Virus record (IMG/VR): IMGVR_UViG_2671180608_000012
DNA: 10,537 bases
Source: a virus
Taxonomy: Duplodnaviria; Heunggongvirae; Uroviricota; Caudoviricetes
Direction: 5' to 3' (one strand)
A model generated the notes under the pieces. That model saw nothing but the letters and a program-made list of their open reading frames with translations, had not been told where the DNA came from and did no database searches. The translations under genes were made by a program, and so were the position numbers. This document shows positions 5,918 to 6,951 of this stretch, piece after piece. Each line of letters opens with the position of its first letter. Within the stretch, counting starts at the first letter, position 1.

Positions 5918-6337
5918 TTAATTGTCTTTATTAATCAATGGCTTAATGTAGAAATACTGTCTCCGTGAAATACCATATTTTTCTGTAATGTATCGCTGAG
6001 ATTGACCAGCATTTATGGCCTGAGTGATATCATCACGGTTATAGCGGTTACCACGGGATTTATATTTGTCACCATCCACATCTTCTGAGGTATTGAAGTC
6101 TTCAATCAGCTTAATTGCATCGTGAAGGTCATCTTCTGAGGCATAATCGAAGGTATGGATAATCTCAAAATCACCAGTATCTGCTGGTGCATTCTTCCAT
6201 CTGGAGAAGCGGGATTTTAATTGCTGGTGTGTGAAGGGTTCAGCATTACGAGTTAAATCTTTCCATGTTCCGTTATTCTCACGGACAAGGTGACCTCTAT
6301 GGCGATAAAACGCATGATAATCAAATGTGCATAGCAT
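5918..6337 (-). CDS. Hypothetical protein (139 aa) with C-terminal HTH-like segment
   Basis: Start overlaps the stop of the upstream RHH-like gene at 6337 (coupled). C-terminal DITQAINAGQSQRYITEKYGISRRQYFYI resembles a helix-turn-helix. Confidence 0.5.
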   Translation of the reverse strand: MLCTFDYHAFYRHRGHLVRENNGTWKDLTRNAEPFTHQQLKSRFSRWKNAPADTGDFEIIHTFDYASEDDLHDAIKLIEDFNTSEDVDGDKYKSRGNRYNRDDITQAINAGQSQRYITEKYGISRRQYFYIKPLINKDN

Positions 6338-6627
6338 TAAACCCCCAGCTTATCCGCCAGTTGATGAACCTTGGCACTCAACACCTGAATCATTGAGCAA
6401 CCTGCCACTGCGGACTGTGCTTTGAGTAGTTCCAGTTGGCCCGTTGTGATTCTGATGGCCTTAGAACCCTCTGCAACGCCCTTGATAGCGTCAAACGGTG
6501 TAAGGGCTATGTGTTCCTTCAAAATCTCACCAACAAGTGCTGTGTGGCTCATGGCTGGGTATTTGTCTTTGATTGCTGCCAGTCTGGAATATGCCTCTGG
6601 CAAAAGGCGTGTAACTGTGTGTCTCAT
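6337..6627 (-). CDS. Ribbon-helix-helix (Arc/MetJ/CopG-like) DNA-binding protein, 96 aa
   Basis: ATG at 6625-6627 with AAGGA RBS. N-terminus RHTVTRLLPEAYSRLAAIKDKYPAMSHTALVGEILKEH fits a beta-strand/helix/helix RHH pattern. Sits directly downstream of the divergent promoter region. Confidence 0.5.
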   Translation of the reverse strand: MRHTVTRLLPEAYSRLAAIKDKYPAMSHTALVGEILKEHIALTPFDAIKGVAEGSKAIRITTGQLELLKAQSAVAGCSMIQVLSAKVHQLADKLGV

Positions 6628-6663
6628 TAAATTTTCCTTCTTAAAATCTTTGACTTATAACTA

Positions 6664-6714
6664 ACTTTAACATATTTATAACATATTGTCAACAACTCAT
6701 TTACATGTTAATAT
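6664..6714. promoter_or_regulatory. Face-to-face overlapping divergent sigma70-like promoters with repeated AACATATT motifs
   Basis: Plus strand: -35 TTGTCA (6686-6691), 17-nt spacer, -10 TAATAT (6709-6714), driving the 61-aa ORF. Minus strand: -35 TTGACA (rc of 6687-6692), 17-nt spacer, -10 TAAAGT (rc of 6664-6669), driving the RHH gene. Two direct AACATATT copies lie in the minus-promoter spacer. Confidence 0.5.
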
Positions 6715-6765
6715 GGTTGTAGGGGGCTGATACAGGTCATTCCCTTTGATAAATAAGGGGAATTA

Positions 6766-6951
6766 ATGGGCTTTCTTGAAACAATTGCTGAATCTCACAG
6801 ATTCGCAAGCTTAGGTTGCTTTGTGTTTCTGGTGCTTCTTGTGTATCAGCTTTTAAAAATGATTATCGCCAGAAGTACACGATTCAATTTCAGCATTAAG
6901 CTTTTCAAATATGAAATCACAATTACGATTGATGATGGTAAAACAAACTAA
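6766..6951 (+). CDS. Small predicted membrane protein (61 aa); the only supported plus-strand gene
   Basis: ATG at 6766-6768 with AGGGG RBS 5 nt upstream and an own promoter; hydrophobic segment LGCFVFLVLLVYQLL. 3' end overlaps the convergent 96-aa gene by 4 nt. Confidence 0.4.
   Translation: MGFLETIAESHRFASLGCFVFLVLLVYQLLKMIIARSTRFNFSIKLFKYEITITIDDGKTN

Follow-up and report, generated by a model that had tools for sequence, protein, structure and literature searches.

Back-to-back promoters between a predicted tandem ribbon-helix-helix gene and a small membrane protein gene in a satellite-like island of enterobacteria

We analyzed a stretch of DNA of 10,537 nucleotides (hereafter, the window) from the tailed-phage record IMGVR_UViG_2671180608_000012 of IMG/VR, focusing on a 138-bp intergenic region (6628–6765) that separates a leftward operon from a small gene on the opposite strand. 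Comparison with related loci, designated by L numbers below, indicated that this intergenic region is a genuine control region with two back-to-back promoters, P_left and P_right, and we slightly favor a model in which it acts as an autoregulatory node with a single regulator and promoter competition, not as a bistable switch with two repressors. The first gene of the leftward operon (6337–6627, minus strand) encodes a 96-aa protein predicted to contain two ribbon-helix-helix (RHH) units, the second (5918–6337, minus strand) encodes a 139-aa protein with a helix-turn-helix (HTH), and the rightward gene (6766–6951, plus strand) encodes a 61-aa single-pass membrane protein. A preliminary description of this DNA, made from its letters alone, had reported these three open reading frames (ORFs), a TAATG overlap of the 96-aa and 139-aa ORFs (6335–6339), a −35 box TTGTCAA common to both promoters, and two copies of AACATATT 11 bp apart (6669–6676 and 6680–6687); all were found at these positions, and the translational coupling of the 139-aa gene through TAATG and the C-terminal HTH of its product were both confirmed.

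A consensus scan of positions 5800–7400 for sigma-70 promoters, with Markov shuffles as the control for chance, found only two sigma-70-like sites, both inside the 138-bp intergenic region. P_left (6664–6692, minus strand; 10/12) consisted of a −35 hexamer TTGACA (6692–6687), a 17-nt spacer and a −10 hexamer TAAAGT (6669–6664), and the latter was part of an extended −10 element with a TG extension, TGTTAAAGT (6672–6664), which reads TGTTAAGAT in a second E. coli haplotype. P_right (6686–6714, plus strand; 9/12) consisted of TTGTCA (6686–6691), a 17-nt spacer and TAATAT (6709–6714), likewise with a TG extension (TGTTAATAT, 6706–6714). The two −35 hexamers were offset by 1 bp within TTGTCAA (6686–6692); when the intergenic region was shuffled under the Markov model, divergent promoters with a common −35 arose in only 1.2% of cases. 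The heptamer had been described as palindromic; the overlap of the −35 boxes was confirmed, but the strict palindrome was not, since the two arms of TTGTCAA are complementary over 3 bp and flank a central T. In 14 related loci the −10 hexamers differed at non-critical positions only (right, TGnTA[A/T/C][A/T]AT; left, TGTTAAAGT versus TGTTAAGAT), the phasing of the repeats was preserved, and the small ORF was open. Consensus promoter hits by themselves were not enriched over the shuffles (2 versus 4.0 expected in 1.6 kb; 19 versus 26 in the whole window), and the main support for a control region came from this comparison across related loci.

The comparison also showed how far the promoter arrangement extends. 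The stretch that starts with the repeats and runs to CTGATAC formed a core that was nearly invariant among the loci of E. coli and Citrobacter, and its flanks formed reassorting haplotypes. The extended −10 element of P_right and the GTT.TAGGG start region were conserved across all lineages, and in the E. albertii and L015 types these rightward elements were all that remained. Back-to-back promoters were found again in the distant loci L017–19, with TTAACA-18-TATAAT (11/12) directed toward the small ORF and TTGACA-17-TAGTAT (10/12) toward a Rep-RHH operon; there, two TTAACAT repeats form the −35 box and the spacer of the rightward promoter. The overlap of the −35 boxes, which would make binding of RNA polymerase mutually exclusive, was present only in the window and in L001–11, an E. 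coli/Citrobacter sublineage, and not in L012–14, L015 or L017–19. These results indicated that the divergent pairing is conserved and the −35 overlap is not. The overlap had been put forward as a design principle, and this did not hold, because it is absent in L012–19, where the promoters are placed differently.

The rightward gene was examined through its alleles. The 61-aa ORF occurred at the identical position in five diverged alleles, the DNA of which was no longer alignable by blastn past the start codon. Between alleles, synonymous sites were saturated and pN was approximately 0.13–0.42, with dN/dS of 0.08–0.44 where it could be estimated. The 61-aa protein had a transmembrane helix at approximately residues 16–34 (Kyte–Doolittle mean, 2.38), and every allele encoded one helix (mean, 2.2–2.6) with a K/R-rich C-terminal flank, from which an N-out/C-in topology was predicted. 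Variants of 61, 64 and 67 aa differed by in-frame LVL expansions in the region of the membrane helix, which suggests slippage on a 9-nt repeat; the P_right product of the island is a membrane protein of 56–62 aa. In L017–19 a different single-pass ORF, of 58 aa, was likewise divergent from an RHH-containing operon. Comparative sequence analysis thus indicated that purifying selection acts on the 61-aa ORF, which is a real gene, and that a lone membrane peptide encoded on the opposite strand is a conserved trait of the island family. The description of the rightward product as a single-pass membrane protein was therefore upheld by purifying selection and by the single hydrophobic helix.

The 96-aa protein was modeled with AlphaFold2 from 23 homologues (predicted local distance difference test score, 66.6; predicted template modeling score, 0.62). 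The model contained two RHH units in one chain: RHH-1 (residues 3–36), with a β-strand at residues 3–7 and α-helices at 10–22 and 28–36, and, after a disordered linker (38–55), RHH-2 (residues 57–94), with a β-strand at 57–61 and α-helices at 62–75 and 79–94. In the model each is a β-α-α unit, and the strand of one runs antiparallel to that of the other to form the DNA-reading ribbon of the fold. The best structural matches of the model were F-plasmid TraY, which was the closest, and single-chain Arc. Natural single-chain tandem RHH proteins are uncommon, and include TraY, AvtR and VirC2. On this model, the 96-aa protein would be a monomeric pseudo-dimer like F TraY, with its tandem RHH units in a single chain. 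It had been described as RHH-like, in a region likened to arc/mnt of P22; the RHH fold was borne out by the model, but a homodimer subunit of the Arc/Mnt type was not, since the tandem units are in one chain. In sequence, the protein was unrelated to Arc and Mnt. As a monomer, F TraY has the entire fold of an RHH dimer, and it binds adjacent sites as a train (PMC12117103). The 96-aa protein resembles it in the two RHH repeats predicted for a single polypeptide, but has no detectable sequence similarity to it, and its gene lies at a divergent promoter of a phage-related island; the relaxosome context of TraY was not matched either, as no relaxase, oriT-type or conjugation genes were present in the islands inspected. 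The two RHH halves of the 96-aa protein showed no similarity to each other by BLASTP, and any duplication that produced them must therefore be ancient. The family was tiny, since only 8 clusters in a set of 1.84 billion representatives reached E ≤ 1e-3, and the protein of the window was 99% identical to a protein of Shigella sonnei. Neither the RHH protein nor the small membrane protein had a credible phage match.

To the direct repeats noted above corresponds a candidate operator, O1 (6668–6687, plus strand), of the form TAACAT-N5-TAACAT, with hexamers at 6668–6673 and 6679–6684 in an 11-bp phase. O1 occupies the spacer of P_left and adjoins the common −35 box, and was kept in L001–L011; a direct 8-mer repeat within 15 nt occurred in 4.5–7.9% of shuffles. 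A second candidate operator, O2 (TAACAG-N5-TAACAT; 5334–5350, plus strand; paralogous copy at 2823–2839), was found 8 bp upstream of the −35 box of a second strong promoter (5325–5297, minus strand; TTGACA-17-TGGCATAAT, 11/12). In 232 kb of related loci, TAACAT-N5-TAACAT with one mismatch at most gave approximately 41 matches compared with approximately 4 expected from composition, and all of them lay at one of three sites: the switch, the position 8 bp upstream of the second −35 box, or, in L017/18, the leader that precedes the Rep-RHH operon. Lineages without TAACAT pairs had other words common to the same two sites: TTTATTGTGAT in L015 (3/1000 shuffles), ATACAAAACT in L012 (13/1000) and TGATACAAA in L014 (35/1000). 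The motifs at the two promoters therefore change together between lineages, and this points to the two sites as a small regulon, for which the RHH protein is the most likely binder. The direct repeats, which had been proposed as operators, are on these grounds good candidates.

As for the protein that binds the repeats, the RHH protein was encoded beside them in every repeat-bearing lineage and is the best candidate, because L009–11 and L017–19 retain the repeats without the HTH protein; the HTH protein was rejected as the binder for the same reason. An intrinsically asymmetric pseudo-dimer would be expected to read a non-palindromic site of direct repeats spaced by one helical turn. That the RHH protein binds these repeats is what we infer, as are the sign of regulation at each promoter and the function of the leader hairpin described below. 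Downstream of the second promoter, a hairpin followed by a T-run (5289–5267, minus strand) lay within approximately 10 nt of the predicted start and persisted in other lineages with an altered stem sequence, which suggests an attenuated or antiterminated late promoter. The paralog of this promoter is at 2815–2787 (minus strand), and at 2815–2755 (minus strand) with its hairpin. A conserved noncoding leader of approximately 270 nt separates the second promoter from the gene for a 203- or 236-aa protein.

In the 5′ leader of the small ORF, a hairpin (6739–6763, plus strand; stem, 6739–6748 with 6754–6763) pairs the Shine–Dalgarno sequence AAGGGGA. A 10-bp stem was attained in 10 of 2000 shuffles. 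All six leader types had a hairpin over the Shine–Dalgarno sequence or the AUG, with a different stem sequence in each; the stems were out of register in the MAFFT alignment, and shuffle tests of accessibility and stem length gave mixed results. Damping of membrane-protein translation by this hairpin is suggestive only.

In the model that we slightly favor, the intergenic region is the early control region of the island, and the two extended −10 sigma-70 promoters would fire back to back in opposite directions. P_left would transcribe a long leftward operon with the tandem RHH protein as its first product, and P_right the only gene of the island on that strand in the region, encoding the membrane protein with its N-terminus outside and its C-terminus inside. 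RHH monomers would bind TAACAT-N5-TAACAT head to tail and, bound in the spacer of P_left, would switch off their own operon by negative autoregulation; in the lineage of the window, where the −35 boxes overlap, binding would also shift the partition of RNA polymerase between the two promoters. The repeat at approximately −44 to −60 of the 5325–5297 promoter would place the downstream genes (those for the 203/236-aa, tape-measure and Dit-like proteins) under the same regulator, as activator or repressor, and the leader hairpin, by pairing the Shine–Dalgarno sequence, would probably dampen translation of the membrane protein.

Several observations weigh against this model. The intergenic region was 83–89 nt in the E. 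albertii type and 64 nt in the L015 type, both without a −35 box, and in L017–19 the −35 boxes were 7 bp apart with no overlap. Confidence in the AlphaFold2 model of the 96-aa protein was moderate; the protein had no sequence-profile match in Pfam, PHROGs or NCBIfam (E ≤ 0.1 or 0.01), and a PDB search with the RHH-family profile gave noise only. Accessibility of the initiation region was significantly low in just three of the six leader types (Fisher combined p, 0.015). RHH proteins of the E. albertii type keep the β-strand residues in loci that lack TAACAT pairs (one mismatch allowed), so that the ribbon residues do not by themselves explain specificity. Rep is also encoded in all lineages and is another candidate binder. 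In the window, Rep is split into ORFs of 124 and 129 aa, compared with approximately 310 aa in E. coli, and an IS3-family element (3178–4334) lies between two paralogous partial island copies (1679–3150 and 4386–5873), which differ in proteins of 236 versus 203 aa and ORFs of 81 versus 148 aa and in which the promoter and hairpin are duplicated; the island copy of the window, with its split Rep and its insertion, is probably decaying.

Some of these points bear on an explanation in which the binder of the repeats is Rep, the HTH protein, or a factor from the host or a helper phage, and the RHH protein, instead of regulating transcription, is a TraY-like DNA-processing accessory for excision, replication or packaging. 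The closest structure, TraY, is an oriT accessory protein, the E. albertii-type proteins retain their ribbon residues although their loci have different repeats, and helper-like noncoding sequence is found elsewhere in the island. However, the only places in the loci where the repeats lie are promoter elements, which they fit exactly, at two or three promoters; the HTH protein is missing from lineages that retain them, and the islands have no relaxase or oriT-type genes, and we consider this explanation unlikely.

Another proposal, made in the preliminary description, is an immunity switch of the P22 arc/mnt type, bistable through mutually exclusive promoters, in one state of which the membrane peptide would be produced as a toxin, holin or exclusion factor. 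It draws on the overlapping −35 boxes of the window lineage, at which binding of RNA polymerase would be mutually exclusive, on the RHH fold of the regulator and on the operator-like repeats within one promoter. In P22 immI, binding at one promoter moves RNA polymerase to the other, and the region has two RHH repressors (homodimeric/tetrameric) and an antirepressor output. The region analyzed here resembles immI (Arc/Mnt, Pant/Pmnt) in its divergent overlapping promoters, putative control by an RHH fold and a candidate operator within a promoter, but differs in having one predicted monomeric tandem RHH protein, a transcript for a membrane protein, and candidate operators that are direct and not inverted repeats. 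Only the leftward transcript encodes DNA-binding proteins, and the product of the other is the membrane protein; bistability is therefore unsupported, because a regulator encoded on one side only provides no double-negative loop and no source of mutual repression or positive feedback. With the −35 overlap confined as described and no sequence relationship to Arc/Mnt, a bistable switch is improbable, and this part of the preliminary description was not supported.

We also weighed a toxin–antitoxin or addiction module, either of type I, the 61-aa peptide being a toxin whose structured mRNA is translationally silent, or of type II, with the RHH protein as antitoxin and the 139-aa protein as its toxin. 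The small size and single helix of the hydrophobic peptide and the hairpin that pairs its Shine–Dalgarno sequence would fit the first form, and an RHH gene placed first and coupled by TAATG to the next gene would fit the second. Against the type I form, a consensus scan, which could miss a weak promoter, found no promoter antisense to the small ORF, either within it or beyond its end, and there was no known RNA in Rfam. Against the type II form, the 139-aa protein, which consists of an uncharacterized N-terminal β/α domain and a C-terminal, resolvase-type three-helix HTH (residues 101–135), had no match in Pfam, PHROGs, NCBIfam or PADLOC and matched no toxin family; its gene is exchanged for unrelated genes in other lineages, and the operon runs on into further genes rather than ending after two. 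No PADLOC match was obtained for the module, and we regard it as quite unlikely. For the membrane peptide itself, roles as toxin or holin had been suggested and found no supporting evidence: in addition to the result for the antisense promoter, the islands had no lysin gene, which a holin gene would be expected to accompany in a lysis cassette, and the 61-aa protein had no match in Pfam, PHROGs, NCBIfam, PADLOC or phage searches. Chance hexamers in an AT-rich spacer with a spurious short ORF, which would agree with consensus hits no more frequent than in shuffles and with the omission of the 61-aa ORF from RefSeq annotation at all of the seven E. coli loci inspected (0/7), are very improbable, given an ORF open in five alleles at the dN/dS values above and with in-frame length variants, promoters conserved at critical positions and variable at non-critical ones, and a repeat pair that recurs at a second promoter.

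The best guess for the membrane protein, and the least supported step of the scheme, is that it serves the resident state in exclusion, in immunity or in the timing of lysis. Proteins of the HK97 gp15 type are small inner-membrane proteins of superinfection exclusion (Cumby et al., cited in PMC11364771). The 61-aa protein is similarly a small single-pass membrane protein from a resident element. HK97 gp15 reportedly acts on DNA entry that depends on the tape measure, and the island also encodes a tape measure; the two proteins are likened by description, with no homology found, and a functional link is speculation.

The region matched 218 of 5,426 complete E. coli chromosomes at 80–99% identity, and its DNA had no match in plasmid or phage records. 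In avian pathogenic E. coli (APEC) E12049 the element splits yecE (DUF72). Related loci in E. coli, E. albertii, Citrobacter and metagenomes shared one architecture of approximately 10–12 kb at several integration sites. When each species was represented by one genome, scanning gave a single extra locus, and the diversity was drawn from E. coli genomes and from lookups of exact protein sequences. The order of the island was a small resolvase and/or Dam methylase, a Rep-like winged HTH protein, the small opposite-strand ORF, the RHH gene, variable small genes, a protein of approximately 236 aa, a TMP_3 tape measure of approximately 700 aa, a Dit_like protein and a large serine recombinase. The tape measure was 32–44% identical to those of Felix O1-like myoviruses (Felixounavirus), and its Dit_like or 'baseplate' neighbor was approximately 81% identical (95–99% in one record) to the product of the gene that follows the phage tape measure, with the order conserved. 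The N-terminus of the tape measure lay at 13–1290 in the window; the comparison also involved 12530–13303 of L001 and 41164–44174 of phage Alf5 (L020). TMP_3 and Dit_like were the only virion-type genes in the islands, and no capsid or terminase genes were seen. Short noncoding segments of the window (9214–9271, 9307–9347 and 9523–9570, in a stretch interrupted by N-masked runs) matched intergenic DNA of Alf5; one match was a common terminator hairpin (86% to Alf5 22089–22144), and another was a twice-repeated AT-rich box containing CTGAAAATTTTTATAAAA (83% to Alf5 13843–13891), which may be a phage-type promoter, or mimic a pac site or an origin.

The island has an integrase and its own Rep, lacks a complete set of virion genes and contains sequence from a putative helper phage, and by this gene content it looks like a phage satellite. 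Vibrio cholerae PLE (phage-inducible chromosomal island-like element), the satellite of the lytic phage ICP1, is similar in being a small chromosomal island with a large serine recombinase, its own replication initiator and a tie to a virulent myovirus. Among the products of PLE is LidI, a small membrane protein that alters when lysis occurs. The present island differs in carrying the tape measure and next gene as a pair from Felix O1-like phages, and the two are likened by gene content, with no sequence relationship found. A literature search found no description of the island, of the protein accessions or of a Felix O1 satellite. On this basis we tentatively put forward, as a possibility that is itself doubtful, that the region is the master control node of an undescribed island family by which Escherichia, Shigella and Citrobacter would carry PLE-like satellites, or anti-phage islands, that parasitize virulent Felix O1-like myoviruses; the tandem RHH protein would autorepress the early operon and gate a terminator-guarded late promoter for the tape-measure and tail genes, and the membrane protein would act on injection, as an exclusion factor, or on lysis timing.

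Further small genes were observed around these elements. Another 96-aa gene (6948–7238, minus strand), whose product gave no match in a family search, lies between Rep and the small ORF, and its stop overlaps that of the small ORF convergently. In the window there was no terminator 3′ of the small ORF, where other lineages have a hairpin, and an unterminated rightward transcript would continue antisense into the 6948–7238 gene and then Rep. Upstream of the second promoter, a tiny hydrophobic ORF of 21–25 aa (5426–5349, minus strand; MGLIIAWTLLGLFVGCIINNAVNKN), with a paralog at 2904–2839 (minus strand; MELVIICFVLIGMIAGASIKV), overlaps the stop of a gene for a protein of approximately 107 aa in TAATG; it was present in all island lineages examined and was unannotated.

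Divergent promoters controlled by an RHH protein are a familiar design, and the bare finding of such a pair is of moderate interest. What this region adds is a rare protein form in a very narrow family, candidate direct-repeat operators at two promoters, and a circuit model that is compact and directly testable. The small membrane-protein gene, which is under purifying selection, is a gene missed by RefSeq in every E. coli locus inspected. If the island is a satellite of Felix O1-like phages, enterobacteria would have a counterpart of the Vibrio PLE–ICP1 system, and the link, if true, would bear on typing, biocontrol and therapy with these phages.

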